From: a virus
DNA: 64,000 nt
Virus record (IMG/VR): IMGVR_UViG_3300020048_000052
Coordinates: 1 to 64,000 of that record
Strand: one strand, 5' to 3'
The notes under the pieces are model-generated. The model was not told the origin of the DNA, ran no database searches, and saw nothing but the letters and a program-made list of their open reading frames with translations. Numbering within the stretch: the stretch's first letter is position 1; each line of letters begins with the position of its first letter. Positions 1 to 64,000 of the stretch are shown piece after piece. The position numbers and the translations under genes were made by a program.

Positions 1-463
1 AGAACTTAAAATCCTCTTCATATCTATCATTATCGCCATGCTTGCCTTTTCTATTCATGCTCAAATCTGCCGGTATATCGATAAGAATTTCCACGCCTGG
101 CTTTATTAAACAGCTCTGTAACATCTGAACGAAAATTTTATTAAGACCTTTTGATATAGCATAAACTTCTTGACTTAAAATATATCTGTCCAAAACTAAA
201 AAGTCAACACCATCATGATTTAATTGCTTAAACCATTGTTGTTGAGCCTGTTTGTCTGCCGCCATAATAAATTCAATTGTTTGGTCGTCAACATCATATT
301 TCTTGTATAACCATTCCTGTATGAGCTTGCCAGTTGGTGTATCATACCTATGAAATTCAGATTTGACTACATTCTTACCAGCTTTTCTAAGCTTTTCTAC
401 TAAAACATTTGTCTGAGTAGCTTTACCACATTTGTCAATTCCCTCGAATGCAATAATTTCCAT
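1..463 (-). CDS. tmk: Thymidylate (dTMP) kinase, runs off window start (not in ORF track)
   Basis: Manual translation from ATG at 463: MEIIAFEGIDKCGKATQ (P-loop) ... LVLDRYILSQ (DR motif) ... DRYEED. Confidence 0.85.
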   Translation of the reverse strand, partial: MEIIAFEGIDKCGKATQTNVLVEKLRKAGKNVVKSEFHRYDTPTGKLIQEWLYKKYDVDDQTIEFIMAADKQAQQQWFKQLNHDGVDFLVLDRYILSQEVYAISKGLNKIFVQMLQSCLIKPGVEILIDIPADLSMNRKGKHGDNDRYEEDFKF

Positions 464-467
464 CAAA

Positions 468-689
468 TTAAACACCTTCCTTATCTAATTTATAGTTCCC
501 ATCATAACGAGGATATAATGGAGTTAAATGTGAAGAGTCCATTTTTTGTATTCTGTCTGTGGAACTTGCAATAATGCATTCTTCACGTTTAACTCCATAA
601 AGACATATAAGTTGATGAGCACTTATATGATGTATTTGGTTGTCGTTTTTACTCATCATACTACCGGGATATACAATATACTTAATCAT
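468..689 (-). CDS. Hypothetical protein (73 aa)
   Basis: ORF with GGTG RBS, tightly packed between neighbours. Confidence 0.65.
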   Translation of the reverse strand: MIKYIVYPGSMMSKNDNQIHHISAHQLICLYGVKREECIIASSTDRIQKMDSSHLTPLYPRYDGNYKLDKEGV

Positions 690-699
690 TTTGCACCAC

Positions 700-1218
700 C
701 TATAACGGCTTTAAATGTTCAAGGTTTATTTCCAAAGACCTTTCGACAACTCCGAACATTTCTACATAAACTCTAGCCTTATATTTGTTTTTGATAATAG
801 ATTTGCATGTACCAACAAAATTTGCAAAAGGTCCACCAATAATCATAACTCTCTTATTTATTAAAGAACTATAATCTACAACGCTTTGCTTATCTTCAAG
901 ATTTTTTATATGCTCAACTTCATAATCTTTTATTGCCACAGGTCTAGAACCTTCTTTTAAAAACGAGATAACTGGAGTAGACCTTAAAATTTCTTTCCAT
1001 ATTAGAGAATCTTCTTCAAATTCGAATAATACATAATTTTCAAACATAGGATAGGTGATGATTTCTTTTTTTCCATCTTTTACTACTACTTTAGAAAGCA
1101 TCGGATACCACATCTTAACATCTGCAAATTCTTCGTGTTTATGAAACGAATTAATCAATTGATTAAGATACCCTTTATAAAAATAGCCAACATACCATTT
1201 TTTAGACACAATCATCAC
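700..1218 (-). CDS. nusG: NusG-family transcription antitermination factor (NGN + KOW)
   Basis: KKWYV N-terminus, PMFENYVLFEF (NGN), STPVISFL, and KOW motif RVMIIGGPFANFVG...VYVEMFG. Confidence 0.85.
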   Translation of the reverse strand: MMIVSKKWYVGYFYKGYLNQLINSFHKHEEFADVKMWYPMLSKVVVKDGKKEIITYPMFENYVLFEFEEDSLIWKEILRSTPVISFLKEGSRPVAIKDYEVEHIKNLEDKQSVVDYSSLINKRVMIIGGPFANFVGTCKSIIKNKYKARVYVEMFGVVERSLEINLEHLKPL

Positions 1219-1225
1219 CTCCTAA

Positions 1226-1888
1226 TTATTTGTAAAATGGTCGATTCAAAAGAGGAATTGGATAAGCCTTCGTAATTTCATTAAAAGTCTCTAATTGTTT
1301 TTTATTTAAACTACCAATATAGTCTTTATTCTTATGTAAAAAGAGCTCACTGGTAAGCATTGACCCTATCCAAAAAGCATCTGCTAAGTCTTCACCGTTC
1401 TTACCAAACTGACCAACATCGAAACCAGTCTTATATGCAGCCAGAACCATTTCAGATTTTTCTGCCGAACCGCTGCCTGTTGCAAATTTCTTTACCTTAG
1501 ATGGTTCATAATCTCTAAACGGTATTCCGGAACGGTAAAGTTGAAGTCTTACCATTTCGCCAACTCCACCTATCTGAAATACCGAATTTGATTTTGCTCC
1601 AAAAGCATAGTCTTCAACTGCTGCATAGTCAAATTTATGTTTTTTAGTCAGATTGATTAAGAATTCGAAAATATTATTAAGGCGCTTTGTTTCTGTGTCC
1701 CTATTTAATATTGCATGTTCGTTTTTACTATTCTTAATAACTCCTGTAAAAAACCAAAAATCTAGTACTTTGAAGTTTTGCATTTTGACGAATGCAGTAC
1801 CATTTAAACTAGGGTCTATACCTAATATAATAGCCGATTCTGGTGAGACTTTTTCAATTGCACTAACCTTCTTTAATACTTTTTGCAC
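1226..1888 (-). CDS. ruvC: RuvC-like Holliday junction resolvase
   Basis: ILGIDPS, AVEDY, PSKVKKFATGSGSAEK, DLADA catalytic pattern. Confidence 0.85.
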   Translation of the reverse strand: MQKVLKKVSAIEKVSPESAIILGIDPSLNGTAFVKMQNFKVLDFWFFTGVIKNSKNEHAILNRDTETKRLNNIFEFLINLTKKHKFDYAAVEDYAFGAKSNSVFQIGGVGEMVRLQLYRSGIPFRDYEPSKVKKFATGSGSAEKSEMVLAAYKTGFDVGQFGKNGEDLADAFWIGSMLTSELFLHKNKDYIGSLNKKQLETFNEITKAYPIPLLNRPFYK

Positions 1889-1901
1889 TTGGCATCACCC
1901 C

Positions 1902-9142: not shown

Positions 9143-10345
9143 TTAAAAAGGACTTACATCCTCGCCGCATTCAGGGCATGTTTTACTATCAGCAGGAATA
9201 TCTTTTCCGCAAGATGGGCATTCGATTATTTCTTCTTCTTCAAATTCAGCCTCGCAGTGAGGGCAAACGCTTGCATCTTCATCAATCATCTTACCGCATG
9301 AAGGGCATTCAACTTGAGGTTTAGCTTTTGGCTTTTCGGTTTTCTTAACAACCTTTTTGTTTGAAGGAGCTGGTTTTTCATCGTCAGAATCGTCATCCTT
9401 TTTAGCAGGTTTTTCGGTTTTCTTAACTGCTTTTGCATCCTTCTTAACTGGTTTTTTGTCAGCCTTTTCTTCAGATTTTGAAGATTTTTTAGAAGATTCT
9501 TCCTTAGAATCGTCAGCCTTTTCATTTTGTCCACCGGTACGATCAAGTTCTTTTGGGTCAAAATCATCAGCAGCAGAAAGGTCAAGGCCAAGGTCGTCAG
9601 CATCATATACAAGCGATTCCCTGATGATATATGCAACTTTAGCCTCGTCTGTAATTTCTGTCAAAATTGAAAGGTCAAGGCCTTCGCCATCAAGCAGCTC
9701 CTGAATTTCTTCAGTAACTTCAGCCTTATTCCAAGTGGCATCATACATTTCACTCGCCTGTGCATCTTTATCAAATACCAATTTGAAAGCATATGGGTTT
9801 TTGAAAGGATTACCTTCCTCTTCACCTTCCTCTTCAATCTGGTCTTCAATAACCTTTGTGATTTTTTTGCCGAGCGATTTGGGAGCAGTAAGCTTCAATA
9901 CCTTTTCTGGCTTTGCATTGTTGATTACGCCAAACAGATATTCTGTTTTATATGAAAGATTTTTCTTCCAACCATAACCTTCAGCGCCGATAATTTCTCC
10001 CTTGTTATACTCTACTTCTTCATCGCCTTCACCAACGCGAAGGATAATTTCATCGTTGTCGATATCCTCATCATCTCTAAGTGCTTTACGTAGCTGGCAG
10101 ATAAGACAAGATTTTACATCTTCGTGAATAATCATCGCCATGTAAACTTTCTTAACCTTTTTATTATCTTCCATTACGTTTGCATAAACCGGAAAATAAT
10201 GTGCATCTCTTTTGAAAATTCCGCTTGCTGGATGCAGCCAAACAATCGCCTTGCCAAGTTCTTTCAAATCAAGGCTTTCCATATCTCCACCGCGGGGCTT
10301 GGTGTCTTTCATAAATTCGTCGATACCCATTTTACCTTTTGCCAT
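9143..10345 (-). CDS. Probable single-stranded DNA-binding protein (gp32-like) with Lys/acidic linker and two C-terminal double zinc ribbons
   Basis: Position next to recA; core with CLIC; acidic tail ending in PF; CPSC-x-CPHC and CPSC-x-CPEC. SSB call rests on context. Confidence 0.5.
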   Translation of the reverse strand: MAKGKMGIDEFMKDTKPRGGDMESLDLKELGKAIVWLHPASGIFKRDAHYFPVYANVMEDNKKVKKVYMAMIIHEDVKSCLICQLRKALRDDEDIDNDEIILRVGEGDEEVEYNKGEIIGAEGYGWKKNLSYKTEYLFGVINNAKPEKVLKLTAPKSLGKKITKVIEDQIEEEGEEEGNPFKNPYAFKLVFDKDAQASEMYDATWNKAEVTEEIQELLDGEGLDLSILTEITDEAKVAYIIRESLVYDADDLGLDLSAADDFDPKELDRTGGQNEKADDSKEESSKKSSKSEEKADKKPVKKDAKAVKKTEKPAKKDDDSDDEKPAPSNKKVVKKTEKPKAKPQVECPSCGKMIDEDASVCPHCEAEFEEEEIIECPSCGKDIPADSKTCPECGEDVSPF

Positions 10346-16284: not shown

Positions 16285-17340
16285 TTAGTCTTCCATAAAC
16301 CTTGCTTTTTCAATATCGGGAAGGCTATCAAAAGTTTCGAAATTAGGCCATTCATCGGGCCTTGTAATATGAATACCGAGCTGTTCCTCAAGGTCCTTAT
16401 AGTTTGTGCATGTTTCATTAAACTCCGCATAGTCATTGCTGTCGGGACATGAATTCCTTCCACACTCCTTAAACAAACAGCCAAACATTTCAGACAGTGT
16501 ATAAGATTTGTGGTACTGGCATTTGCCTGCCCAATCACAACCAGGTCTTAAAAATGAACCAAGCAACGGATATGCTTCCGACACAGCCCTAGCTGTTTGC
16601 CATGCAATAGCAACTGTATCTTCCATTTCGCAGAATTTCATTCTGGTACTGCACATATTCCTCAATGCCATAAAGTTAATCGAAAACGAAAAACCATAAA
16701 CTACATAAAGAGGTAGTACACAGCGAGCTGCCTGCCAAGAACCTTTACCAACGTCAACAATATCTGCATATGTCTGTTTAACATCGCACATAACACGCTT
16801 GATATTCCAAAAAATATTGCATTTGTCAATTGCTTTTTGCTGCTCTGCTGTAGGTGTTTTGATGATATTACTGCGCCATTCATCGAAAATTTGAATTTCA
16901 TCTTCTGTTGGCCAAAGTGCAGTTGGAATCCTTATTGAAGCATCTTTCCAATTGTTATCCCTCATACCTCTTGCAGAAAATACAACACCAAGTCTTGCTC
17001 TTGCAATCTGATCGAATGCCGCACGTGATGGCCCTTCTACTGCAAAAGCAAATTGAGGTACTTCCAATGCCAATGGTAACGCTTGGCCTCTTAAAGCTGC
17101 CTTAACAACTTCAAATCTGTTTTCAGGCGATGTCATTTCCCATTTATCTACCTCTTTACCCCAGCATGTAGTAGCCAGAATATACATTGGTTTATAAGGG
17201 TTTGCAATGACAGATTCGATAAGTTTTACCGAAATTCCTTCAACACCTTTTAAAAATTTTGTTTCAAGTTTTGGGTCTTGGTCTGGAAGTGTCCCCATAA
17301 CTCTCCTAAGTTCATTGATACGCGTAGTTTCGTTACTCAT
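16285..17340 (-). CDS. Divergent second ThyX-family flavoprotein
   Basis: LALEVPQFAFAVEGPSRAAFDQIARARLG (RHR changed to RAR), WQAARCVLP, Cys-rich C-terminus. Confidence 0.75.
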   Translation of the reverse strand: MSNETTRINELRRVMGTLPDQDPKLETKFLKGVEGISVKLIESVIANPYKPMYILATTCWGKEVDKWEMTSPENRFEVVKAALRGQALPLALEVPQFAFAVEGPSRAAFDQIARARLGVVFSARGMRDNNWKDASIRIPTALWPTEDEIQIFDEWRSNIIKTPTAEQQKAIDKCNIFWNIKRVMCDVKQTYADIVDVGKGSWQAARCVLPLYVVYGFSFSINFMALRNMCSTRMKFCEMEDTVAIAWQTARAVSEAYPLLGSFLRPGCDWAGKCQYHKSYTLSEMFGCLFKECGRNSCPDSNDYAEFNETCTNYKDLEEQLGIHITRPDEWPNFETFDSLPDIEKARFMED

Positions 17341-17369
17341 AATATCCTCCTTTATTGGTTTATAATATT

Positions 17370-17398
17370 ATTATATCACAAAAGAATCATTTATTAAC
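17370..17398 (-). promoter_or_regulatory. Conserved phage promoter GTTAAT-N14-TGATATAAT
   Basis: Exact consensus match. Confidence 0.8.
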
Positions 17399-17420
17399 AC
17401 ATTATAGACGGCAATTTTCT

Positions 17421-18554
17421 TTATATAAATACCTTTTTATTACGATTTTCATAGTATGCTTGGTTTATTGGCTGATATCTACTAAAGCAATTATCACATT
17501 TTCCGGAACAGAATGTTTTGTTGAAATTTCTTTTCCATATTTTTATAATGCTTTCAGAATTAACATTGCCAAGGCCTGTAAATGAAGTTTGTCTTTCCAT
17601 TAAGCAATCGCTGAACTTTTGCAATTCCCAAAATGTTCTTTCTCCATATTCATCTGTATCATCAGCAATCATCTCGCACGGAAATACATTTCCATCAGAA
17701 CCTATAGCTAAATGAATTTTATTTATGATGCATGGATAATTACCGAATGTCACTTTTCTAACATCTTCATCTTGTGAATATGCCTGTATAAGGCTGTCAT
17801 AAAGAAACTGCAAATTGTTTTCGGGTATTCTTTTGTGATAGTTCTTACTTATCATATCGTTTAGTTGTTCTAAAATTATTTCAATTTCATCTCTACCAAT
17901 ACAGAGGTTTCCATCACCGTGCATAGGATAAATCATAAGTCTATAGATATTATTTTCTGCAGAAAACTTAATAATGTCGCGAATGTCCATGCAATTACTT
18001 TTCTGTATTGTGAAATTTATTCCAACCTCTTTTTGATGCTCTTGAGCCTTTCTAACGTTAGGCAAAATCGTTCCATATAAATTATCGAGGCCCCTAATAA
18101 AAGTGTATCTAGCAGGGTCTAGAGAATCAATAGAAAAGCGTATCCACCTTAAGCTTGCCAATTTCGAAAAATCGAAATTCTTTTTAAAATTACCTGTGCA
18201 AATAATTCCAAGGTCAAAATTTCTTTTCATATCCAGAATTTTATCAAAATCTGGATGGAGAATTGGGTCACCGCCAGTTAAGCAGATTGACTCTACTTCA
18301 TTTTCATTACAGTCATCCCATATTTCTTTTAAAATAGAAATGTCCAAATTATTGCGATTTTTAGTTTTCCAATGACCGCACATATTACACCGGTTGACGC
18401 AGTAGTCAGTAACTAAAATATGCAACGATATCGGGCCTTTCAAAGCTTCTTTTTCAATAAGCTTTACATACGGCAATATTTTCTTAACTGTCTTTTCTCT
18501 AACTACATCCATGTTAAAGCACCTCCTGATTATATTTATAAGGGCAACCATCAT
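17421..18554 (-). CDS. Radical SAM enzyme with SPASM/twitch domain (likely start about 18512)
   Basis: CVNRCNMC, LTGGDP, RFSIDS, C...GNVFPCE...LGNV...CDNC. Confidence 0.9.
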   Translation of the reverse strand: MMVALINIIRRCFNMDVVREKTVKKILPYVKLIEKEALKGPISLHILVTDYCVNRCNMCGHWKTKNRNNLDISILKEIWDDCNENEVESICLTGGDPILHPDFDKILDMKRNFDLGIICTGNFKKNFDFSKLASLRWIRFSIDSLDPARYTFIRGLDNLYGTILPNVRKAQEHQKEVGINFTIQKSNCMDIRDIIKFSAENNIYRLMIYPMHGDGNLCIGRDEIEIILEQLNDMISKNYHKRIPENNLQFLYDSLIQAYSQDEDVRKVTFGNYPCIINKIHLAIGSDGNVFPCEMIADDTDEYGERTFWELQKFSDCLMERQTSFTGLGNVNSESIIKIWKRNFNKTFCSGKCDNCFSRYQPINQAYYENRNKKVFI

Positions 18555-19032
18555 CAGAAATTTCCAAATGCATAACTGGAACGTTATTTCTTATCATAGC
18601 TTCCTTTAACTTGCATTCTGCAATTTGTTCTTTGCCTGCCTTACATTTCATACAGACAAGCAAAGCATATTCACAAATTTCATAAAAATCTTCTGTAACA
18701 ACAACCATATTTGATTCTATTTTTTCCATTTCTTTAAATTCCCTAATGGCTTCAGTCTTTTGTTTTACTATTATTTCAAGTTTTTTCATTTCATTTATTA
18801 CATCATGCTTATATTTGTCATCAAGATTTTGAAAGTACCAATCTATAACTTTTAGGCAGAATGACCTTGACATTTTCATAAACTTAATTACAGACTTTGG
18901 TCTTTTAAGTTCTTCAAACTTGATAATCAAATTATTCATGAAGTCAACGAGAGTCCCTAAAATAATAGTATTATATCTGTCTTCCTTATTTAGATATCGT
19001 TTCATCTTTATCAACTCCTGAAAATAAATCAT
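18514..19032 (-). CDS. DUF5651-like protein
   Basis: MKRYLNKEDR N-terminus and C-x2-C...C...VP...CPY C-terminus. Confidence 0.6.
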   Translation of the reverse strand: MIYFQELIKMKRYLNKEDRYNTIILGTLVDFMNNLIIKFEELKRPKSVIKFMKMSRSFCLKVIDWYFQNLDDKYKHDVINEMKKLEIIVKQKTEAIREFKEMEKIESNMVVVTEDFYEICEYALLVCMKCKAGKEQIAECKLKEAMIRNNVPVMHLEISDDGCPYKYNQEVL

Positions 19033-20023
19033 GTGCCTGTTGCATTTTCTCTTTAATATTTATTCCAAACGGGCAATTAGAAGAACATTGGCTGTCACAG
19101 TCTTTACAGTCATTTACATTATATTTATATTTTTCATAACTGTCTTTCATGTCAAGTCCAAACTTTTCTTGATATATTGCGCATTTTAATATACCGGGCT
19201 GCGACATTGCCCAACCATATTTCTGGCATGGCCTGCATTCGTTGCAAAACCTACAAAAGTCAGAACCAAAAAAATCAACTATCTGATTTTCTAAAATCAT
19301 AATTTCTTTTTCAGATAGTTTTTCAGCAAAGCAATATGCATTTGCTATTTGTTGTAATTGTTCTATAGAACGATAAGCCGGAATGATTAAGTCACCATTG
19401 TATGCAGAAAAATTCATAACTTTTTGCAATGTCACAGTGCGTTTAAATTCATTATCAGAAGGCCCTCCAAGCAATATTCCGCTTGCGAAGTTTTTCATAG
19501 TGACTACACTAATTCCTTTTTCTTTTGCACATTGAATAATAGATTCAAACTCCCTATGCATTAAAGAAAATGGTACCATTATTATATCTACAAATCCACT
19601 TTCTATTGCAGTCATTGCAGCAGTAACTGAATGCCCAGAAACACCTACACTTTTTATAAACCCTTTGTCCTTAATATTTTTCATCTCATGTAAAACGTTC
19701 ATAGATTTTTCCAAGGTTTCGTCATCATCTATAAACGAATGGCCAAAATAAAAGTCTACATAGTCAGTATTGAGTTTACCTAAACTATTTACCAAAGACA
19801 AATGAAGTTCTTTGACTGTAGCTGCCTTTGTCTTAGTAGACAATAAATAGGACTCCCTCTGATAGTCTCTAAGCGCATGCCCAAAAAATTCTTCACTAGC
19901 ACCATATGCTGGAGAAGTATCAAAAATCCTAATATCTAGCATATCATATGCATATCTGATTATTCTTTCAGGATGGTCAACAGGATTTACAAAGTAACCA
20001 CCCATTCCCAATTTTGCTTTCAT
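18986..20023 (-). CDS. Aldo/keto reductase with C-terminal 4Fe-4S domain
   Basis: FDTSPAYGASE, LSTK, SLGKLNTDYVD, VGVSGH, CRFCNECRPC...CKDC...CPFGI. Confidence 0.88.
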   Translation of the reverse strand: MKAKLGMGGYFVNPVDHPERIIRYAYDMLDIRIFDTSPAYGASEEFFGHALRDYQRESYLLSTKTKAATVKELHLSLVNSLGKLNTDYVDFYFGHSFIDDDETLEKSMNVLHEMKNIKDKGFIKSVGVSGHSVTAAMTAIESGFVDIIMVPFSLMHREFESIIQCAKEKGISVVTMKNFASGILLGGPSDNEFKRTVTLQKVMNFSAYNGDLIIPAYRSIEQLQQIANAYCFAEKLSEKEIMILENQIVDFFGSDFCRFCNECRPCQKYGWAMSQPGILKCAIYQEKFGLDMKDSYEKYKYNVNDCKDCDSQCSSNCPFGINIKEKMQQAHDLFSGVDKDETISK

Positions 20024-20036
20024 ATTAAATCTCTCC

Positions 20037-20483
20037 TTATAATAAGCGTTCAGCTGTTAACAGAATTTGTTCCATACACTCATCTATACAATATTTAGAA
20101 GTGTTTATATTTAATACTTTTAAAGAAGTATTTTCTAAATACTGCCTATATTGTTGCTTTACATAATCAATCTGTTGTAAATCAATATCTTTTTCATCAT
20201 GTTCTATAAACCTTTTCTTAATATCTTCAGTATCGGCAAAAACATGAACAAACATAACTGGAATAGGAGATTTTGTTAAAAAACTTTCCAAATTTCTAAA
20301 ACTTTCCAAACTTGGAGTTGAATTTTTATTATGAAGCCTCCCATAAACATACTGACATGGAGTAAACCTGTCCACGCAAATATGTTGGTTTGTTCTTTTT
20401 AAGATATTTTTCATAAGTGTACTTTTGCCAGTCTTATCGCAGCCGACGAAAAGCAAAATTGCCATTTTAAAAACCCCCTTCAC
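20037..20483 (-). CDS. Short dNMP-kinase-like P-loop protein (second nucleotide kinase)
   Basis: FVGCDKTGKST, VDRF, INTS. Confidence 0.8.
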   Translation of the reverse strand: MKGVFKMAILLFVGCDKTGKSTLMKNILKRTNQHICVDRFTPCQYVYGRLHNKNSTPSLESFRNLESFLTKSPIPVMFVHVFADTEDIKKRFIEHDEKDIDLQQIDYVKQQYRQYLENTSLKVLNINTSKYCIDECMEQILLTAERLL

Positions 20484-20499
20484 CTTAAATATACACCTT

Positions 20500-42500: not shown

Positions 42501-43805
42501 TTGGACTTTTACCTGTTTGACTCCGATTGAAGCTGCTAAGGCATTTCTTTCTGCAATTGTATTTACATTAACAATTGCAATTGCATAACCTGGCCATTCT
42601 GGTCCTCCGCAATACCACCAATCATCAGGGGCAAGGCCTCCACCTCCGGGCCTGATAAATCTATGAGAATCAGTTGGTGCTCCATATCCTGTTTGAAATT
42701 CACTACCAACAACTGATATATTCCCTTCTGTGCTTTTCATAAACAATGGGTCATCTATGAATTGAGGATATAAGTCTGTCGCATCATCTGAAAAAGTATT
42801 TTTTTCAATATCGTTCAGAAATACAACGTGCTCCCCTTTTGTTATGTCCCAAACAGGATTTCCTTCTAACCATATAAGCTTAATTATAACGTCTCCAAAG
42901 TCATTTGTATAAGCAGTTCTAAACTGTCTACCACTACTTTGATATGGAGTAACATCGACTATATGCCAAGAAGGCGGTTCTAATTTAGGATTTGGCGAAG
43001 GTAAGTAGTGATTTATGTCTGGGTCACTAGCACCATAATTTGGAGAAGATGCGCCATAACCAACAAAATTAAGCATATAACTGCTATAATACCCTATTGC
43101 AAATAACCTGTTTTTGTCTTCAAGGCTTTTATCAATAGTATCAACTGCCAAAGGCCTAACTTTGTATTGGTCATAATAAGTCTTATTTGAATATTCTTCT
43201 CTATTAAATTGAAGATATTTTACTGCTTCAAAAATTCTATTACCTGTTGCGAATTTTTGAGTGCCTTCTTCATTATAGGTAAATAGACTTTCGAATAAGA
43301 TAAAATCGTCTTGATTTAAAACTGGAATTTCTCCAGAATCATTTGCATGGAAGTCTCCATCAACATAGGCTTCTTTTCCGAATACGTGTTCTTGGCTCCA
43401 AGCATTTACAATTACCGGTAAATTGAGGTTCTTACAGTATGATACTATTTGATTCTGTAAACTTCTTGATACATGATAATCATATCCAAATTCATCAAGA
43501 AATATACCGTCAGCACCAGTAACAACCCACTCATCTGCATAATCTTGCATCGTGGAAATGTCTAATTTTGATGGACTTAATTGTCCAACTGGAATGTATC
43601 CGAAAAACTTTGTGACTACATTAATTGTTTTAGTAGCAGCTATAATAGCTGTTGTATTAGCATAGTCAGGATGTGCAGGATGCTCTAATCCATCGCCTAT
43701 AATGACTATATCATAATTTGAAAATTTTTCTGCAGCGGCTTCTACATCAAACAAACCATTGATTGCACTAAGCCAGCCGTAATAGACTAAAACTCTTTTA
43801 AGCAT
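36519..43805 (-). CDS. Giant (2428 aa) receptor-binding / depolymerase protein with two glycoside-hydrolase-like TIM barrels and several CBM/Ig-like modules
   Basis: N-terminal GADGIFLDEFGYD...FES; C-terminal VDGIYLDDF...FDGFLIENF...SREFDN; repeated N-x-x-NGDF/NPEF CBM4/9-like starts; located in the tail module. Confidence 0.72.
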   Translation of the reverse strand: MLKRVLVYYGWLSAINGLFDVEAAAEKFSNYDIVIIGDGLEHPAHPDYANTTAIIAATKTINVVTKFFGYIPVGQLSPSKLDISTMQDYADEWVVTGADGIFLDEFGYDYHVSRSLQNQIVSYCKNLNLPVIVNAWSQEHVFGKEAYVDGDFHANDSGEIPVLNQDDFILFESLFTYNEEGTQKFATGNRIFEAVKYLQFNREEYSNKTYYDQYKVRPLAVDTIDKSLEDKNRLFAIGYYSSYMLNFVGYGASSPNYGASDPDINHYLPSPNPKLEPPSWHIVDVTPYQSSGRQFRTAYTNDFGDVIIKLIWLEGNPVWDITKGEHVVFLNDIEKNTFSDDATDLYPQFIDDPLFMKSTEGNISVVGSEFQTGYGAPTDSHRFIRPGGGGLAPDDWWYCGGPEWPGYAIAIVNVNTIAERNALAASIGVKQVKVQENDTLYKYDGSNWVSIVGNDPKENYQGFLDAGGQWIDPTDQDKAQLASLTDNPIYYNITPYKLVKLDATDPKVRQGTPPSDMPQNYGLTQCFELNQTNKHYMKISFFYKTVGFSVTPQVNFQGYSAAILDNNWSETNSGGTYLFMDTASTSSPWREASQIITAEYPFLYGFVHMLVRGASTGQLFITGLKLEQLQIVKDDSVVSDNLLINGDFAVAISDINVKGNVLGFEMENATKATYSTPLPVVNFLATVDVKPEGYFEQRGIVTNSSLNMYTLKVPYRSLLGCQGKIIVELRDRFKNILSLKEIQLDVIESTVWKEQLVEFIAGYPVESVDIRIENTGTTGNLTIGKLALTAADLGITDGDINAVNGTEEEITISQMARADHTRVVGLPEPMGISKVKADFFKKFTEEQLMHEDDPYEGIVYITDGNIKDISPKLCRRLSTVKVYETVPFTQGDFESNAYDVGSDTDSVMVKYNGIMMLPYLKPPHLSHIHTWKETGANFSAQHMGRRYYCVTAYNAQGETTKSNIIVGKAEGVNGVKVSGVIKPPQCKVPIEITPSEGAVGYRIYVTEEATPWSQLQNTVGRDWFFLESSFYYVMKMNYPIWGDNCLLDEITTEELREMGYVYYDDGHIANTQQGKPPTSNTALVYMLNDGVLYFDDLFKDWVSRYDYTKLSIFKSVDTTKKEMNGGIYLPNKKMFYMSAGTKLFYHDEYQLAEVYQIGNSELGDVKGWCNDSDEAYYVTDQGKIVKLSDGSVISIAGTVFTNILGIVKEDNGFAILRGNSITKINMTGAVTSQFNIPSGIAGSLIGFSKVFDKYVVFNDTTKKLIFFDNLAIRSQITPTAVPKFFNVVGTTLFIYIAHEEDELPHSMLLYDLICEKYYGEMNPVKIFDSEPQFPDADRQLILWESDPNLYPNIVPNGDFRCSLLGDQVYPAYTEIFPSPPANVPWSVERDTVLDVEKNIIHFKNGGNTQARLYYSRIGIKGGMQYQVNLTAKALASGGYVNITFGVRNKHDKERWGINNHGISIGTEYKTISFKIQIQEEALSVNVDLSFGAGIEYKVSAFEIIPLDPVLEIPEFLENGDMSIIDQGANYPSGFKMSNMPNETGLANVTSSMVLDSTNGNAWRIVDTNTAKEKWYIDLPIMKITAGDQLRLKFKYKCSSTTADMLVRVIMCFEDGAPIQSLNDFTVKASDTNEHEYVLPTSPFMEYCTYDPVQYPAFAGKPYPKLMVRIHPAAGATSEFRMFAPELFVSGNSLQRATNPEFADGISAWYTTMPTPVGNTAITAETKDGVKCAHFVHAGNGTAQLCQEFEIPKTKNPIEVAITLKGTLTSTLADAAALRFNDVFFSSPNGQFKDNSNADWPFERIAIYLEALSEAAFPKGSLNYTDWTTLKFTVNPKVVDNVTDYIFKCSLKCTISSNWGCTAADLYIRSITCTEISSEVVEDPDDIEIVCQDTFTVSQGYIPITLKLKKGDENVAIGAQTIQLTSNDPAGEIEISSTNVLGYARALFIPKVFAGIVKLTATYGSVTATKEIEVMPLITQFKSFREIVGFDDLFSDKLYLEVIYKKRFKDFRHEGDQVQGWTVFRSPEFNKEQTMDTPMSISTLDSGYLSRMQELFDTFPYYYCNFSEYFDYVADKNEMYASPVERAQAYIFRNRKWWYSLSLEGYKSPFGAPDYRRLYNWREKEMFQWYMDRIMFIMKPYVDGIYLDDFWGEEYKTSAGFDFSFKKTPLLNYLSFMDRQYAQARTLKYLGFKCRLKGKYLCCNYGASVDANYSSDGSPKRLTNGDIDPNSGKYSPADMALIYPFDGFLIENFTGWDDQVGMTAESSINQLTNNMWMVRGIIELMRYCRDHGKFIVCLARGTPQNWDIRMMNFALFLMGWFPNAYMTMHQLTEYGEDEDEAVRYGEVFHIQMLPEMRIRLGEPKSDYVWNNYLFSREFDNCIALANASTSSGRSYTLPEGIWYDLKGNAYTGTVTVPKASALVVMKVRP

Positions 43806-45831: not shown

Positions 45832-48459
45832 TTATAACCATCCAACTTCAAATTGTCTAACCCAATAAGCAGTATTTGCAGTAGCGCTTCCTTCAATTTT
45901 AAACCAAACGTCTATCTCTCCGTTGAATGCGCTAGATAGTGTGTATTCTGCATCGAATTCTGTCCAATCAAATGCAGAACCTGTTGGTAAGTTAACTCTA
46001 GTATCTGTACTTCCAACTCTAAGTAACATAAATACTTGAGTATCCGCGTTGTTTATATAGCTTGGGTCTGCTTTAATTGACATTCTAAATCTTACTTTTT
46101 TTCCAGAAGCAACTGATACGCCAGTTTGATACCTTAGCATATCGCATACTTGTTGACATCTTATTACTTGACCTCCATCAAGAGGTGTTTGCCCTTCTGC
46201 GATTGTAGCACCGTAGTTGTATGCAAATCCTCCACCGCTACCTAAGCCTAGTTCAAGTTTAGAATTATTCATTATCAATGTAATTGTTGGTTCTGCAGAA
46301 CCTTCATCTAACGTATGCGATTCTGTAGCAGTACCAGAGTCTGAAACACTGATATAAAGCGTTTGAGAAATACCTGTAACTGTTTCTGCAGCTGTACCAG
46401 AGTCTGTAGAATTAATAACTCTTGTTTCAACGTTAGAATTCATTGTATCAGTACCAGTACCAGAGTCTGTTTTGGAAATATTGACTGCCTGTGCAGATTT
46501 TGTATCAGTACCAGTACCAGAGTCTGTTTTAGCCAAGCTTATCGCTTGTTCATACTTATCATCTAAAGCGTCACCGGAGTCGTGCTTCATTAAAGTATAT
46601 AACCAAGATGCTAAAACTACTGTCATATTGTTTTCGTTTAAAGTATAGTCTTGTGCTTCTGAACCACTCATGTCATCGAATTTCCAGTATGCTTGTAATC
46701 CGGATTCGTTTCCATTTGGCCTATAGTCTTGGTCATCTTCTACTTCTATATCAGACATAGCTCTTGAATAAAGCACTAAATCTCTAACTATTCCATCAAA
46801 GAAGTAGCTCGTACCGCCAGTTTTAGCACCAACATAAATACCAGTTCCTCCATCGTCTCCGGCTTCGTCTGTTGCCGTTCCAGATTGTAATACTCCATCG
46901 ATAAATAATTTTGGAGTATTAGTTCCGTCAAATGTTAAATGTATTTGATATTCATGTTCACCATCAAATACTAAATCGCTTGAAGCAGCATTATAATCAA
47001 TGCTATATTCTTTTACTTGAGCAATAATTTTATTTCCTAATAATCTAATGCTCCAGCCAGTATTTGATGCAGTAGAAGCCTGAACAATTCTAGCATAGTC
47101 ATCATTAGATGCTGAAGGTTTTACTTTGACTGCAATAGTTTTAGCTCCAGAACTTAAAGGATTGCTTTCAGTATATGCTCTACTGCTAATGCCATCTAAT
47201 ATTAATCCATAACCGGATGTTAGAGTGTCTTCGATTGTAAACATTTCTTCAAGAACTGTTGGATTAAACACTTCATCTGAAGATTTTATTCTTATAATCA
47301 TAGGCAAGTCAGATTCTGTAGTCCCTGAAGCTGAGAACGTTTCGTATTCCTTAATTTTAATTAAGAAAGGATTTTCATGTTCGTCAGTACTTTCACCCCA
47401 ATGCCTGTCAGCCTCTTCTTCAATATCTACATGCATTTGTTCAGAGACAATATCGAATAGATTTGTTTCTGATGTTTTAGATTTAATTAAGTTTTTAGCC
47501 TCTTCTATTGGTAAGAATATAATCTTACTTGAATCTTCATCAATTGCAACAGGAATATATTCTTCTCTATAAACATACCTATCATTAAAGTAAGTTACTT
47601 CTGATAGAGCATTAGAGAATATTTCATCTTCTGTGATTAATCTTATAATTGTATTTTCTTGATATGAATAATTGAACGGGTTTGAATCTTCTAATGAAGC
47701 CAAGATACTTATGTCAATATTCAAATATTCAATATCTGGTTTTACCGTATAAGACTCCAAATCTTTCAAAACAAATAAGTCATATTCGTCTAGTATTGGT
47801 GTATAGTCTTCTGGAAGCTCAATACTAGATACTAATAAAAATGGATTTGTATATACTGGTAATACCATTTTTAAAATCTCTATTAAAGCCATGACCATAT
47901 CGAACTTCAAAATTCCACCAGCGAGTGGTGTTAACTTAATAACTACATTAGAACCTCTATGTTTTTTGCCTAAATACCTTGAGTTATCTGCATTTCCTGC
48001 TTTATATGTTCTTGGTGTAGTATATCCTTCTAATTCATTATGTTGATTTGTAGACCATGTTCTAAAAACTTTACTACCAAGGTCAGAGATTTCTGTATCA
48101 AAACCAGTTATCTCTTTAGCTACAAATATAACAGATGATTTAGTACCTTTTCTTTTAAATATTTCAACTATATTTTTGATTATTTTTCTTTGGCGCTCAA
48201 TAGGAAGAGTATAACTATATTCATAACCAAATGTCTTACCAAGTAACTTTAGCTCTTCCTGATTAAGATTATCTACCAAATTTACATCAACCATATCTAT
48301 AATCGATTGTAGTATCGGTTCTAAACCACCACCCTGAATGGCTTCAAGCAATCTTTTAAGAATAAGTTTTTGCTCGTTGTCTAACGTTCTATAAACAGCT
48401 GGCAGGTTGTTATATAAATAGTCTTGGCCTAAGGAATCAAAAATTGTTTCATTTGCCAT
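45832..48459 (-). CDS. Baseplate protein (P2 gpI-like N-terminus) with LamG/concanavalin domain and DSGTGT repeats
   Basis: LPAVYR...IFKRKGT; KLFIDG...IYVGA...FFDGIVRDLVLYSRAMS...AYWKFDD. Confidence 0.75.
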   Translation of the reverse strand: MANETIFDSLGQDYLYNNLPAVYRTLDNEQKLILKRLLEAIQGGGLEPILQSIIDMVDVNLVDNLNQEELKLLGKTFGYEYSYTLPIERQRKIIKNIVEIFKRKGTKSSVIFVAKEITGFDTEISDLGSKVFRTWSTNQHNELEGYTTPRTYKAGNADNSRYLGKKHRGSNVVIKLTPLAGGILKFDMVMALIEILKMVLPVYTNPFLLVSSIELPEDYTPILDEYDLFVLKDLESYTVKPDIEYLNIDISILASLEDSNPFNYSYQENTIIRLITEDEIFSNALSEVTYFNDRYVYREEYIPVAIDEDSSKIIFLPIEEAKNLIKSKTSETNLFDIVSEQMHVDIEEEADRHWGESTDEHENPFLIKIKEYETFSASGTTESDLPMIIRIKSSDEVFNPTVLEEMFTIEDTLTSGYGLILDGISSRAYTESNPLSSGAKTIAVKVKPSASNDDYARIVQASTASNTGWSIRLLGNKIIAQVKEYSIDYNAASSDLVFDGEHEYQIHLTFDGTNTPKLFIDGVLQSGTATDEAGDDGGTGIYVGAKTGGTSYFFDGIVRDLVLYSRAMSDIEVEDDQDYRPNGNESGLQAYWKFDDMSGSEAQDYTLNENNMTVVLASWLYTLMKHDSGDALDDKYEQAISLAKTDSGTGTDTKSAQAVNISKTDSGTGTDTMNSNVETRVINSTDSGTAAETVTGISQTLYISVSDSGTATESHTLDEGSAEPTITLIMNNSKLELGLGSGGGFAYNYGATIAEGQTPLDGGQVIRCQQVCDMLRYQTGVSVASGKKVRFRMSIKADPSYINNADTQVFMLLRVGSTDTRVNLPTGSAFDWTEFDAEYTLSSAFNGEIDVWFKIEGSATANTAYWVRQFEVGWL
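46444..46530. repeat. 30-bp coding direct repeat (46444-46473, 46501-46530) encoding KTDSGTGTDT
   Basis: TGTATCAGTACCAGTACCAGAGTCTGTTTT twice, plus degenerate copies nearby. Confidence 0.85.
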
Positions 48460-51246: not shown

Positions 51247-52749
51247 TTATGGCATTTGGCCTACTGTTTCTTCTCCAGTTATACCATCAACTATATAAAC
51301 CTTGCCAGGGTTTTTACTTGCAGTTTTATTTGAACCAGAGCTTTCAGTCGAAGTAGGGTTGTTGATAGGACCTTCGTTTTCGTCTGAAACTTTAGCAGCT
51401 TGGCCGATACCATTTCTTGTGCATTCCAATGAAGTCCTATATCCACCACTATCAATTGTATGCCTTACTGTCTTTACATACCAATTTCCAGACCATTTTT
51501 TGCCTACACCGAATATAGTTACTAAACCTCCAGCCTTTATCTCTGGTATTCCAATACAATCTATATCTGCTTCAAACCATTTTGTAGTGCCACTTTTAGA
51601 CTCGCTATTTTTCATTGCCCCAGCGGCAACATTATCAGTTGTATTTGAAACTTTATTATTAGAAGCCCCTTGAACTGGCGTAAATACTTTTTCTTCTTCA
51701 CCTGTAATACCATTTATTACATAAGAATACTGGCCAAGTTTAGTCGAATTTGTATTGTTTGCCTTAGTAGTAGAAGCAGTTTTGTTTGTAGGGTTAGTTG
51801 TAGTAGATGATGCTGAAGACTTTGCATCTTTAGTTTTAATCTTAGGATAAAACTTTTCAACTTCTCCTGCTCCATCAATATAGTAATATAAAGTCCTTTG
51901 TGTTTTTGATGAAAAATCTACATTTCTGAAAAATAATTTATCACCATAGACTTTAACTGTATATCCTATTCTATCGCCAAGTCTTTTAAGAAAAGCCAAA
52001 TTGTCTTCATTTGTTTGCGGAGTATAATCATATCTTGTTTCCACTACTTCAACATCAGCTTGTAACCCCATTTCCTCAGCAATAGAAGTTGCAATCTCTG
52101 AGTAAGTCATATTTTCCCATACTCTGCTATGCGTTGCTAAAGGATTTGGGCTATCCTCCTCAACAACTTCTGGTGCCGGCTCTTCAGCAGGAGTCTGAAT
52201 CTCTTCTTCTTGTCCAGGGATTTTTAAAACCTGCCCAGGATAAATAAGATTTGGATTAGAACCTATGACATCTCTATTTGCATTGTATAAATCTTTCCAC
52301 CCTGGAAGTCCAAATCTTCTTGAAATTGCAGAAAGATTATCGCCTTTGACTACTGTATATGTCTTTGGTGCAGACGAAGTAGACTCTACTTTGGCCGGTG
52401 CAGGAGATGCTGAGGGAGCAGGTGGTGGTACAACTCCAGAATTTATTTGATAGGCTTGAACTTTTATTTCATTTAAGCCTTCGACATCCTTTATTTTTGC
52501 CTGCTTAACAGCACTTCTTCTATTTAGATATCCATATTGAAATGTTATAACCCCACCAATATCAAGCATAGGGTCATCTACAAATTGCAATAGAGTATCG
52601 TCAATCAAAATTGTCATCATGTCGTCTTTATCATCGACTTCTTCAAATTCAAACTTACTTATTTTATCTGCAAGTTCTGAAGGTGCTTTTTTACCGTCTA
52701 TTTTAATAGTAAAAAACGGATCGTAAGCTTCAGGAATCATAAATGTCAC
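51247..52749 (-). CDS. Baseplate hub (gpD/gp27-like) with inserted LysM domain
   Basis: QTNEDNLAFLKRL, GIPEIKAG...GVGKKWSGNWYVKTVRH; YTVVKGDNLSAIS...NPNLIYPGQVLKIP. Confidence 0.88.
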   Translation of the reverse strand: MTFMIPEAYDPFFTIKIDGKKAPSELADKISKFEFEEVDDKDDMMTILIDDTLLQFVDDPMLDIGGVITFQYGYLNRRSAVKQAKIKDVEGLNEIKVQAYQINSGVVPPPAPSASPAPAKVESTSSAPKTYTVVKGDNLSAISRRFGLPGWKDLYNANRDVIGSNPNLIYPGQVLKIPGQEEEIQTPAEEPAPEVVEEDSPNPLATHSRVWENMTYSEIATSIAEEMGLQADVEVVETRYDYTPQTNEDNLAFLKRLGDRIGYTVKVYGDKLFFRNVDFSSKTQRTLYYYIDGAGEVEKFYPKIKTKDAKSSASSTTTNPTNKTASTTKANNTNSTKLGQYSYVINGITGEEEKVFTPVQGASNNKVSNTTDNVAAGAMKNSESKSGTTKWFEADIDCIGIPEIKAGGLVTIFGVGKKWSGNWYVKTVRHTIDSGGYRTSLECTRNGIGQAAKVSDENEGPINNPTSTESSGSNKTASKNPGKVYIVDGITGEETVGQMP

Positions 52750-56683: not shown

Positions 56684-56687
56684 CCCT

Positions 56688-58220: not shown

Positions 58221-59750
58221 TTAAGACTCTGTTACAGATGAGCCGCCATCCCACTGGTTGATACCGATTTCAACGAACTCACCAGGTTTAGATTCAGCTA
58301 CACCAACATCTAAATGTACTTCTCCGGAATCGATAGTAGCCAAAGTGTTGTTTGTAGTATCGCAGACAACATAATAAGCTAATTCCGATTTGCCGGTTCC
58401 ACCATCATTGAAAGCGCCCTTCTTATACTCTTTGTTTAAGAAAGAGTCAGCTAGCAACTTCAACTTACCCCACAGAATATTATCGTTCGGTTCAAATACT
58501 GACCATTTAGTTCCCTTTTTCAAGGAAGAACCAATGAAGTTGAAATGCAACCGATTGTTAATATATCTCCATAGAGCATCGGAAGACGTTGTTCTTGCGC
58601 CCCATGCAACGATACCTTCAGTGAACGATCTGATAACGTTGATACCATTAGGGTTAAGCTCTGATTGCTGAGTATCATTGATGATTCTTTCAACACCGAT
58701 TGCTGTTTTAAGTTTACCATCTTCAATACCAGCTGGAGCTTTGTGAACGCCTCTAGTACCTGCAACTCTGGCATAAACGCCAGCCATAGCCGCTGAAGGA
58801 GGCATCAATTTCTTTGCTGCAGTAACTGGGTCTTTAATGTAATACCAAGGGTAATACAAAGCGCTGAATGCGTTGTCAATTGCAGCTTCACCAGCATAAT
58901 CACCAGTTGCCAATTTGAATTCTTTTGCTTCAAGATAGTCAAGACCTGCAGGAACATCTCCGATATGGAATGACTTCCTTGCCTGTGCATATGCTGCTAC
59001 AGCGTTTAGAACTGCTCTAGAAGTAACACCAGGGATTGCAATGTTGAGATTTTCATCAACATAATCAAGTGCATATAGACCGGTATAGCTTACAGGGCTG
59101 CCAATATAATCATTGTCTGAAATATTAGCTAAACCATCAGAACCACCAGTCAATGCTGCTTTTACTACAGTAGCCGGAACTCCAGCAGCAAGTTTAACAA
59201 ATGTTACTGCATTCGGTGCAGTTCCGATCGTAATACCATCCAAAGTATCTACAGTTTGCTCGTCAAGAGATGCAATTGCATTAGCACCACTTCCTTTGTA
59301 AAGTTCAACTTTGAATTTAGAAGCGTTTGCAGAAGTAGCTGCAGCAATTGTGATTTTCAAATCACTCTCACCTTCTACTACTCCATCTACCTGTAATACA
59401 TCTACAGGATTTTCAGCTGCTCCATCGTTTAGTTTGACGCTTGCTACTTTGTTTGTCGCAGTATCTGCGTCGGCTACATCTGTGAAATGAACAGTTCTTA
59501 CAGCATAGCATTTAGCACCAGCGCCAGCTTCAATGAAAAATGTTTCTACTGCGTTTGCCAGCCAACCATTGCTGATATAGCTACCGAACTTTTCAGTATA
59601 CTCGGTGAAGTTTGAAACAAGAATTGCTTCACCAACAGGGCCTTTTTCTGCGCAGCCAACAAAAGCTGCAATTCCAACTGAAGCGCCATCGATAGGTTTA
59701 GCGCCTGCAGAACCTTCGTTGATATAAACGTTTGGCGTTTTATGTGACAT
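58221..59750 (-). CDS. Contractile tail sheath protein
   Basis: TPNVYINE, AFVGCAEKGP, LYYPW, PPS...AGVYAR, GVHKAPA, LNPNGINVIR, WGART, VFEPND. Confidence 0.95.
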   Translation of the reverse strand: MSHKTPNVYINEGSAGAKPIDGASVGIAAFVGCAEKGPVGEAILVSNFTEYTEKFGSYISNGWLANAVETFFIEAGAGAKCYAVRTVHFTDVADADTATNKVASVKLNDGAAENPVDVLQVDGVVEGESDLKITIAAATSANASKFKVELYKGSGANAIASLDEQTVDTLDGITIGTAPNAVTFVKLAAGVPATVVKAALTGGSDGLANISDNDYIGSPVSYTGLYALDYVDENLNIAIPGVTSRAVLNAVAAYAQARKSFHIGDVPAGLDYLEAKEFKLATGDYAGEAAIDNAFSALYYPWYYIKDPVTAAKKLMPPSAAMAGVYARVAGTRGVHKAPAGIEDGKLKTAIGVERIINDTQQSELNPNGINVIRSFTEGIVAWGARTTSSDALWRYINNRLHFNFIGSSLKKGTKWSVFEPNDNILWGKLKLLADSFLNKEYKKGAFNDGGTGKSELAYYVVCDTTNNTLATIDSGEVHLDVGVAESKPGEFVEIGINQWDGGSSVTES

Positions 59751-59991: not shown

Positions 59992-60008
59992 AACCTCCCA
60001 TCTATATT

Positions 60009-61650: not shown

Positions 61651-61664
61651 GTTGCTTCACCTCC

Positions 61665-62474: not shown

Positions 62475-63052
62475 TCCTCTTCATCATGTTGGTCGATATG
62501 AGCCTTTAAGTCTTCCAAGTCTTTGGCTTTATAGCCGCAGAGTTCGCAAACCAAAGGGTCCTTTTCGACTTTTGCTTTTTTCTGTTTCTTTACTCCAGAG
62601 CCACCAACGATTTCTGTTTTATCGGCATCTGTATTTGCAGTTACCGGTACAGAAGGGGCTCCATCTGTGTTGTCCTTTTTATCTTCATCAGACGGGTTTT
62701 TATCTGTGATGTCTTTTTGAACTTCTTCAAGAAGAGCACCTACATTAACGCCCGCTTTCCTTTTTGCTTCTGCTTCGATCGCACTCTTTTCGATAACCTC
62801 ATCGCGGTTCGCAATGTGGGGTCGAAAAGTCACAATAGTTCTTGCAGCTTTCTTATCCGAATCGTTTATGACCGCATTTCCTTCTTCATCGCATTCATAA
62901 AAAAGTTCAGGATAAGCTCTAAACTTACTTGCATCCTGTTCATCAGTTACATAAACAGGTTTGCCTTTATAAAACGCATATCTTCTACTTGAAAGGCCCG
63001 TAATCTTATAACTATGAGCCGTTAAAAGGTCAAAATAAGTTGCCATTTTCAC
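62471..63052 (-). CDS. Hypothetical protein with C-terminal C2H2 zinc finger
   Basis: CELCGYKAKDLEDLKAHIDQH. Confidence 0.7.
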   Translation of the reverse strand: MKMATYFDLLTAHSYKITGLSSRRYAFYKGKPVYVTDEQDASKFRAYPELFYECDEEGNAVINDSDKKAARTIVTFRPHIANRDEVIEKSAIEAEAKRKAGVNVGALLEEVQKDITDKNPSDEDKKDNTDGAPSVPVTANTDADKTEIVGGSGVKKQKKAKVEKDPLVCELCGYKAKDLEDLKAHIDQHDEED

Positions 63053-63061
63053 GCCTCCTCG

Positions 63062-63622
63062 TTAATTGTCTTCTACAGTAAGAACTTCGAATTTTTCTTC
63101 GGCAGTTACTTCTTCTGTAGTTATTGCATAAGCTCCACCTGTAAGAGTGTTGCCTGATTTTGTGATTCTTGCACCGCCATTTACTGCAATTGTTAAAGCA
63201 TTACCAGCCTCTCCAGCTGTTTTGCAAGTAAGAGTGATAACGCCGGCCTCAACAGATGCGTCTAATGCTACATTAGCAATAGTTCCATCGCCATACTCAT
63301 CTGTCTTTTCCTCACCGTTGATTGCTTTTTTAAGATTCAATGCACAGGCTGTAACATCTGCGCCGATTTTTATATCATTTGCAGCCGCAGGTAAATCTAC
63401 GAATTTGTATGTCTGACCGCCAACTGTTACTGTGTCATTTGCGCTTGGGACATCAGCTATAGTGACAGTTCCGCTTGCTTTTATAGCAGCAGTTGTTATA
63501 TGAACATGCGCATCAAACGATGCTTTGATAGACTTAAGGTCTTTAGCGATATCTGTCAAGATACCTTCGAGCTTTTCCATGTTTGACAGGCCTTTGCCTA
63601 TACCTTTTTTCACTTTTGACAT
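63062..63622 (-). CDS. Probable virion structural/decoration protein
   Basis: ASGTVTI...DTVTVGGQTYKF...AGNALT...TLTGGA; follows the capsid gene. Confidence 0.55.
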   Translation of the reverse strand: MSKVKKGIGKGLSNMEKLEGILTDIAKDLKSIKASFDAHVHITTAAIKASGTVTIADVPSANDTVTVGGQTYKFVDLPAAANDIKIGADVTACALNLKKAINGEEKTDEYGDGTIANVALDASVEAGVITLTCKTAGEAGNALTIAVNGGARITKSGNTLTGGAYAITTEEVTAEEKFEVLTVEDN

Positions 63623-63658
63623 GATATTTTTCCTCCATTCAAATTTTTCTTAATAATC

Positions 63659-63693
63659 AAAAGGGCCATTAGCCATTGACGACTAATGGCCCC
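63659..63693 (-). terminator. Terminator after the major capsid gene
   Basis: GGGCCATTAG/CTAATGGCCC stem plus T-run. Confidence 0.75.
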
Positions 63694-63714
63694 TTAAGCC
63701 GAGTCAAGCTTATC

Positions 63715-64000
63715 TTAAAATAGATCGCGTTTTCTGAGGTTAATAGCTTTTACAACCGCATCGTCATTTTCAATGCTGAAGTCTACTTCGTTATAAATAA
63801 CGGTTTCAACTCTGTCGTAATCCTTATTGAACTCAGTGTAGATTCTGGTTGTACCTCTCATTGCAGCAATGAAGTTCTTAGGATTTGCCAACCAGATGAA
63901 AGAACCGTCCTTTGTAGTTGTAAGAGAACCGCTGTTTGTACCAGCATTATCTCCTTCAGAAAGACCGATTTCATCATAAGCATCATTTGCAACTGCCTGA
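63715..64000 (-). CDS. Major capsid protein, C-terminal fragment (not in ORF track)
   Basis: Manual translation ...GSFIWLANPKNFIAAMRGTTRIYTEFNKDYDRVETVIYNEVDFSIENDDAVVKAINLRKRDLF*, an HK97-fold-like C-terminus. Confidence 0.8.
   Translation of the reverse strand, partial: QAVANDAYDEIGLSEGDNAGTNSGSLTTTKDGSFIWLANPKNFIAAMRGTTRIYTEFNKDYDRVETVIYNEVDFSIENDDAVVKAINLRKRDLF

Follow-up and report, generated by a model that had tools for sequence, protein, structure and literature searches.

The tetranucleotide GATC has been almost completely lost from the genome of a large uncultured phage, IMG/VR virus record IMGVR_UViG_3300020048_000052 (111,051 bp; here G0, or G000 where coordinates are given), and every site that survives overlaps a CpG dinucleotide. 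An earlier note on the first 64 kb of this record (the window) had reported nine GATC where roughly 150-200 would be expected, all of them in the form CGATC or GATCG. A direct count returned exactly nine at the same coordinates, with none missed, and the flank contexts were all correct (9/9). For the window, base composition predicts 198 and a Markov model of maximal order 160. No other 4-mer of the window is nearly as depleted (observed/expected ratio 0.056, z -12), the runner-up being CTAG at 0.61. Over the whole record, which CheckV grades as complete, there are 19 sites against 273 expected from the Markov model (ratio 0.07), and 16 of the 19 lie in coding sequence.

In addition to base composition, dinucleotide and Markov models, we used a null in which synonymous codons are shuffled inside each gene, so that the proteins and the codon usage of each gene are kept. 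Across 300 such trials the expectation for G0 was 241 +/- 11 GATC with a minimum of 208. Because codon-preserving shuffles never fell below this number, codon bias cannot account for the deficit.

The surviving sites follow a strict rule. All 19 are CG-flanked, where 25-27% would be by chance (P = 4.6e-12), and the split into DGATCH and CGATC/GATCG sites that the earlier note had called for leaves no GATC of G0 in a non-CG context. Against the codon-shuffle null, non-flanked GATC number 0 versus 180.9 and flanked GATC 19 versus 61.3. We then divided the sites into those with CpG at both ends (CGATCG, two-sided), at one end (CGATCH or DGATCG, one-sided) or at neither (DGATCH). The two-sided class is present at its expected frequency (6 observed, 5.8 expected). 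CGATCH (6 versus 39.4) and DGATCG (7 versus 29.4) together give 13 one-sided sites versus 69, and DGATCH is missing altogether (0 versus 198.8). Expressed as observed/expected ratios, these are 1.0, 0.19 and 0 for the two-sided, one-sided and unflanked sites. Tolerance is therefore graded: complete with CpG at both ends, about one fifth with CpG at one end, and zero without it.

The two one-sided orientations are equally common among the survivors even though about 90% of the genes of G0 (35% G+C) lie on the minus strand. Since both orientations are equally frequent while the genes run one way, the effect is on the duplex and not on mRNA, and a cause at the mRNA level is ruled out. The position after GATCG holds A, C or T in background proportions, so that the 5-mer GATCG is the limit of the constraint; this excludes TCGA, ATCGAT or CGATCG alone as the protecting word.

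Comparison with related genomes shows that the purge of GATC is lineage-specific. G001, a 107.6-kb genome with terminal repeats, is syntenic with G0 (proteins 55-80% identical) and has in common with it a nucleotide-modification cluster, described below. It contains 272 GATC against 311 expected, in every context, and three shorter contigs (L004, L098 and L099) likewise have ordinary GATC. The rule of G0 recurs in G002, a 42.6-kb fragment from a different sample, in which 21 of 21 GATC are CG-flanked. Relative to its own codon-shuffle null, G002 has 0 non-flanked sites versus 66.7 and 21 flanked sites versus 22.2; its one-sided sites are not depleted (18 versus 24.9 expected). The purged genomes G0 and G002 have 35-36% G+C and the others 30-31%. 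A clade of G0 and G002 was not supported, as the three long genomes are equidistant, with 68-70% nucleotide identity for each pair. The purge may have originated once or twice.

Searches for further relatives added little. Megablast found no close cultured relatives, and the best match by tblastn with the Pol III alpha subunit and the sheath protein was Bacillus phage BCD7, at about 34% identity. Scans of IMG/VR with the sheath, terminase, Pol III, helicase and ThyA-fold families returned only the same three contigs. Of two metagenome scans for relatives, the first gave no match and the second two short contigs with ordinary GATC.

Codon alignments of 93 G0/G001 orthologue pairs allowed a comparison site by site. 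Among 196 G001 GATC that aligned without gaps, only three have GATC in G0 as well, each with a CG flank there. For two of these kept sites a T/C difference in the flanking base is all that sets the genomes apart (CGATCC and CGATCA in G0, TGATCC and TGATCA in G001). The most frequent G0 counterpart of GAT-C in G001 is the synonymous GAC-C (37 cases). One site could be followed through three genomes, reading TGATCC in G001, CGATCC in G0 and TGACCC in G002; the last two avoid an unflanked GATC in different ways. The differences between G0 and G001 are those that would be expected from selection on the DNA word, at a divergence where the direction of change is not provable. Three features by which restriction-site avoidance is recognized are present: depletion against the composition, Markov and codon-preserving nulls, a word that is a known restriction target (that of Sau3A, PMC6532042), and loss without protein change.

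We also scanned all 4- to 6-mers for a CG-flank exemption, with the occurrences of each word split into CpG-flanked and non-flanked and compared with the codon-shuffle null. GGATAC/GTATCC, the BciVI site, is purged in G0 (6 versus 26 from the Markov model) and normal in G001. Five of the six survivors are CG-flanked, non-flanked sites numbering 1 versus 16.8 and flanked sites 5 versus 7.0 (P = 0.01, post hoc). In G001, where the rule is weaker, unflanked GGATC is partly depleted (57 versus 100.8, z -5.7) and flanked GGATC is not (21 versus 21.9; P = 0.03, post hoc). Small as these post hoc signals are, their direction agrees across three genomes and three words. This favours a DNA-borne mark at CpG over the preference of one enzyme, which would not account for an exemption shared by GGATAC and GGATC.

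Other words gave less. GAAATC/GATTTC is about two-fold depleted in both G0 (50 versus 108, Markov) and G001 (40 versus 90), with the plus-strand orientation the rarest in G0 (14 versus 32 in codon shuffles); its overall CG-flank enrichment is not significant (P = 0.16, for a word chosen post hoc). Noted alongside this depletion in G0, CGAAATCG has six occurrences in unrelated contexts. G001 is depleted in GAATTC (10 versus 34.5, Markov) and partly in GGATC, which suggests that its host carries different restriction enzymes. An enrichment of CG flanks among GAATTC survivors was suggestive against the Markov model, was not significant against the codon-shuffle null, and was set aside. As a control we counted GATC in coliphage T7. 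Like G0, T7 is strongly depleted (6 versus 141 expected); unlike those of G0, its survivors have CG flanks no more often than chance predicts (2 of 6, where 40% is expected). The host biology of T7 differs, enterobacteria having Dam and MutH.

On balance, we lean towards an explanation in which the GATC purge was driven by host restriction and cleavage is prevented by a mark that the DNA bears at CpG. The hosts would have a nuclease cutting GATC in duplex DNA, and probably a GTATCC-type enzyme too. Selection would have removed all unprotected sites, mostly via silent codon changes, and sites would persist only if a CpG step takes in the terminal G.C pair of the word. Packaged DNA would be marked on CpG cytosines or at the CpG step, and the mark would block cleavage: with both strands marked (CGATCG) immunity would be full, and with one strand marked (CGATCH or DGATCG) it would be partial in G0 and near-full in G002. 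What we infer is that there is a host nuclease, that the mark exists, and whether phage or host makes it. According to vendor methylation tables, overlapping CpG methylation blocks Sau3AI and DpnI and impairs MboI.

The earlier note had proposed a GATC-targeting defence in the host, with sites surviving where their C sits in a CG context modified by a phage or host enzyme. The idea of a host defence with protection in CG contexts gains from the signs of selection on the DNA word (the GAC-C counterparts and the T/C flank pairs) and from the lineage specificity of the purge. Survival through modification at CG gains from an exemption that is tied to CpG overlap, is graded by one or two strands and appears to extend to other words. 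Modification by a phage enzyme has fared less well, since searches of the phage gave no methyltransferase of the C5, N4/N6 or Dam type; in particular, a C5-methyltransferase elsewhere in the genome (PF00145) did not turn up in a six-frame search of G0, G001 and G002.

Within the explanation that we favour, the maker of the mark can be sought in three places. About half of the weight falls on a phage-made, context-dependent cytosine modification linked to a ThyA-fold enzyme directed at deoxycytidine monophosphate (dCMP) and to the surrounding cluster, and about a third on a host CpG-type methylase. The rest goes to modification of every cytosine, with a nuclease that would tolerate the modified base inside its site and be blocked by it at position -1. 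Host C5-methylation would be excluded as the mark should the ThyA-fold enzyme already substitute the C5 of cytosine.

The ThyA-fold enzyme is a protein of 177 amino acids (aa) whose AlphaFold2 model has a predicted local distance difference test score of 93. Foldseek places T4 dCMP hydroxymethylase and the dCMP hydroxylase of phage HY126 at the top of its matches to the model, which also include thymidylate synthases. C108 and D139 align with T4 C148 and D179 and are invariant in 14 homologues. An Asp stands at the position of ThyA Asn177, as in T4-type homologues that modify dCMP at C5. The signature of 5-hydroxy-dCMP synthases, an Asn at E. coli ThyA Asp169, is absent (G0 has the motif RSSE, the 13 homologues RSSD). 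Judged from its modelled fold, the protein may be the source of C5-modified cytosine in the DNA of both G0 and G001.

The adjoining genes of the cluster encode a divergent ThyX, a radical S-adenosylmethionine (SAM)/SPASM protein, a DUF5651 protein, an aldo-keto reductase, a small deoxynucleoside monophosphate (dNMP) kinase, a fusion of a nucleoside triphosphate (NTP) pyrophosphatase with a HAD domain, and a 305-aa protein. A resemblance of the latter to UDP-galactopyranose mutase was not confirmed by Pfam, PHROGs or a sequence search of the PDB. The ThyX pair, the dCMP deaminase, the ThyA-fold protein, the small dNMP kinase and the NTP-pyrophosphatase/HAD fusion form a set that resembles the deoxycytidylate-replacement toolkit of T4. 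G001 keeps GATC with the same cluster, so the purge is not due to the cluster. A full-length SAM synthetase (MetK) encoded by G0 might supply the radical-SAM enzyme, or increase the SAM available for DNA methylation. It is a tentative idea, and on present evidence a rather doubtful one, that the phage itself marks CpG cytosines by a hypermodification built on the ThyA-fold product with the adjoining ThyX-paralogue, radical-SAM and reductase genes. Context-specific post-replicative hypermodification is known in phages, namely in ones that modify thymidine (PMC8989533).

Several points weigh against a CpG mark. Its case is drawn entirely from sequence statistics. The nuclease of the host is a prediction, and so is any CpG methylase that the host may have. 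The searches turned up neither a DNA methyltransferase nor a glycosyltransferase in the phage: six-frame searches of the three long genomes gave no N4/N6 (PF01555), Dam D12 (PF02086) or phage Dam (PF05869) methyltransferase, and Pfam and PHROG scans of 86 open reading frames (ORFs) revealed no methyltransferase, glycosyltransferase or restriction nuclease. CpG rho is 0.68 and 0.61 in the purged genomes and 0.50 in G001, with no sign of deamination of 5-methylcytosine. One-sided sites are strongly depleted in G0 and not in G002, a difference that the model explains only ad hoc. Finally, the secondary words involve small numbers and were chosen after the scan (P = 0.01 and 0.03).

The main rival to the CpG mark, which we regard as unlikely, dispenses with a mark. 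The host nuclease would be intrinsically DGATCH-specific, a C 5' of the G on either strand blocking cutting, so that one bad half-site weakens cleavage and two abolish it. This fits all GATC counts equally well, the dosage included, and agrees with the failure to find a modifying enzyme in the phage. To our knowledge there is no GATC enzyme with DGATCH specificity, which we count against it, as we do the absence of the CG rule from the T7 survivors. The exemption appears to extend, moreover, to the unrelated words GGATAC in G0 and GGATC in G001, although these signals are weak, and phage K lost its GATC under Sau3A with no flank exception reported in the review (PMC6532042).

Methyl-directed restriction is less probable still. 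Some hosts would Dam-methylate GATC and others would cut Gm6ATC with a DpnI-type enzyme, either step being prevented by the CpG flank or mark. The same symmetry and dosage are predicted, and GATC, as a Type IIM target, is avoided in 46/46 phages whose hosts encode such enzymes (PMC6286503). This reading, however, needs two host activities plus a flank effect, and it leaves the GGATAC purge unexplained.

We see very little prospect for self-avoidance, in which the phage would have its own GATC nuclease, for example for degrading host DNA, and keep the word out of its own genome. G0 does carry many unassigned small early genes at 82-89 kb that might encode such an enzyme. Six-frame searches of G0, G001 and G002 for MutH/Sau3AI (PF02976) and DpnII (PF04556) nucleases were nevertheless empty, and the only nucleases in the scans of the 86 ORFs are RuvC, SbcCD, GIY-YIG homing nucleases and a 5'-3' exonuclease. 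The sole gene common to the purged genomes G0 and G002 and absent from G001 (63062-63622) was considered as a nuclease and appears structural. A by-product of codon usage, mutation bias or assembly artefact, with no selection on the DNA word, can practically be dismissed, as codon-shuffle trials never came near the observed count, the dinucleotide and Markov nulls agree on the depletion, the rule is replicated in an independent assembly from another sample (G002), and relatives of similar composition lack the pattern.

G0 is best explained as a lytic myovirus of an anaerobic host of Bacillota (Gram-positive) type. It has sheath, baseplate and tape measure genes, along with genes for Pol III alpha, UvrD, DnaB, primase, RecA, RuvC, SbcCD and ligase and for two ThyX proteins, a dCMP deaminase and a NUDIX protein. 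Homologues of its endolysin are spread widely among genomes of Bacillaceae, Paenibacillus, Clostridia and cyanobacteria, too broadly to name the host. An atlas search with MetK pointed to Bacillota and to no finer rank, and a terminase search in a 400-genome sample of one class found no match. The sole clue to the host is the contig of one relative, deposited within a metagenome-assembled genome of Sedimentibacter sp. The presence of the endolysin in G0 and its lack in G001 are consistent with a host switch between G0 and G001, and together with the gap in G+C they suggest that the two have different hosts.

Two further regions of G0 stand out. On the minus strand of the window, a 2428-aa ORF (36519-43805) with no PHROG match adjoins the baseplate genes. 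It is 22-24% identical to its counterparts in G001 and G002, where neighbouring genes are 50-80% identical, and it probably encodes a fast-evolving host-recognition protein. Outside the window, G000 82214-88975 contains about 20 small ORFs without a G001 counterpart, likely early or host-takeover genes and a possible seat of anti-defence functions. At about 83767-83776 of G000, 10 consecutive N mark an assembly gap. Coordinates of the surviving sites and of the genes discussed are given in Table 1.

Table 1. Surviving GATC and GGATAC sites and selected genes of G0 (lower case, flanking bases; the window is positions 1-64,000 of G000)
Feature	Position	Strand	Remarks
Surviving GATC	9541..9544		cGATCa, one-sided
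Surviving GATC	17010..17013		tGATCg, one-sided
Surviving GATC	20678..20681		cGATCg, two-sided
Surviving GATC	38010..38013		cGATCt, one-sided
Surviving GATC	52719..52722		gGATCg, one-sided
Surviving GATC	58627..58630		cGATCt, one-sided
Surviving GATC	59226..59229		cGATCg, two-sided
Surviving GATC	62777..62780		cGATCg, two-sided
Surviving GATC	63723..63726		aGATCg, one-sided
Surviving GGATAC	1103..1108	+	cGGATACc
Surviving GGATAC	18140..18145	-	tGGATACg, CG-flanked
Surviving GGATAC	43596..43601	-	cGGATACa, CG-flanked
Surviving GGATAC	46040..46045	-	cGGATACt, CG-flanked
ThyA-fold enzyme, 177 aa	15686..16219	-	catalytic Cys and dCMP-type Asp; also in G001
Rest of nucleotide-modification cluster	16285..22403	-	genes listed in the text; syntenic in G001 except the DUF5651 gene
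Canonical ThyX	window 11234-11935		Pfam E 2e-38
Divergent second ThyX	window 16285-17340		E 1e-13; no PDB sequence match
Endolysin, Amidase_3 + glucosaminidase	window 33953-35371	-	no G001 counterpart; flanking genes conserved
MetK, full-length SAM synthetase	G000 90157-91341, minus strand (outside window)		absent from G001
GIY-YIG/NUMOD3 homing endonucleases, two, close together	G000 93643-94326, 94590-95375 (outside window)		one partial match elsewhere in G001
dCMP deaminase	G000 107612-108100

GATC avoidance itself is well known; what seems new is the exemption for sites that overlap CpG. Restriction-site avoidance is widespread in phages, as surveyed by Rusinov et al. (PMC6286503). That survey makes no mention of flanking context, and we found no description of a CpG-overlap exemption in the literature searched. 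What the present case adds is a phage lineage whose host is of Bacillota type, a clean gradation with dosage, a control within the lineage and a candidate cytosine-modifying enzyme. Site avoidance is usually read as a trace of the host enzyme only, whereas here the exceptions tell, to the base, where the DNA is immune, and also what one protected strand is worth compared with two. From them it can be predicted that the DNA of this uncultured phage is marked at CpG and on no other cytosines. This could supply a target context for an uncharacterized nucleotide-modification cluster or, otherwise, predict an orphan CpG-type methylase in the host, and the same read-out applied across viral metagenomes could reveal context-specific DNA modifications without chemistry. 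Were a phage-made CpG mark to prove true, the purge pattern would be its trace in the sequence. The mark would then be a novel, context-specific modification of cytosine in phages that infect anaerobic Bacillota, and would protect simultaneously against enzymes of the GATC, GTATCC and GGATC types.

Known systems cover parts of this picture. Among the phage pathways that replace cytosine are those of T4 dCMP hydroxymethylase and of the 5-hydroxy-dCMP synthases of RB69, DLP3 and RL38JI (PMC13326640). As in these pathways, G0 combines a ThyA-fold enzyme with a dNMP kinase, an NTP pyrophosphatase and a dCMP deaminase; unlike them, its protein is only 177 aa long and lacks the D169N signature, and no glycosyltransferase was found in G0. 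The known replacement pathways also swap every C and would not, alone, yield a CpG rule. Blocking of cleavage by CpG methylation in vitro resembles the case of G0 in that the modified C of GATCG lies inside the site on one strand; in vitro the block uses an added CpG methylase, whereas in G0 the block would be seen through the trace that evolution has left on a phage genome.

A precedent on the host side is Mycoplasma hyorhinis, which has a Sau3AI-family restriction-modification system (Mhy3/End3) together with the CG-specific C5 methylases Mhy1 and Mhy2 (PMC13736764), and thus combines a methylation-sensitive GATC cutter with CpG methylases in one genome of Bacillota lineage. M. hyorhinis has no cell wall, whereas the phage G0 carries an amidase/glucosaminidase endolysin. 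The closest parallel to the purge itself is Staphylococcus phage K, which lost GATC to escape Sau3A (PMC6532042). Phage K and G0 have in common a near-total loss of GATC through codon choice in a large lytic phage of a Gram-positive-type host. They differ in that no flank rule is reported for phage K, whereas G0 tolerates two-sided CpG sites fully and one-sided sites partly.

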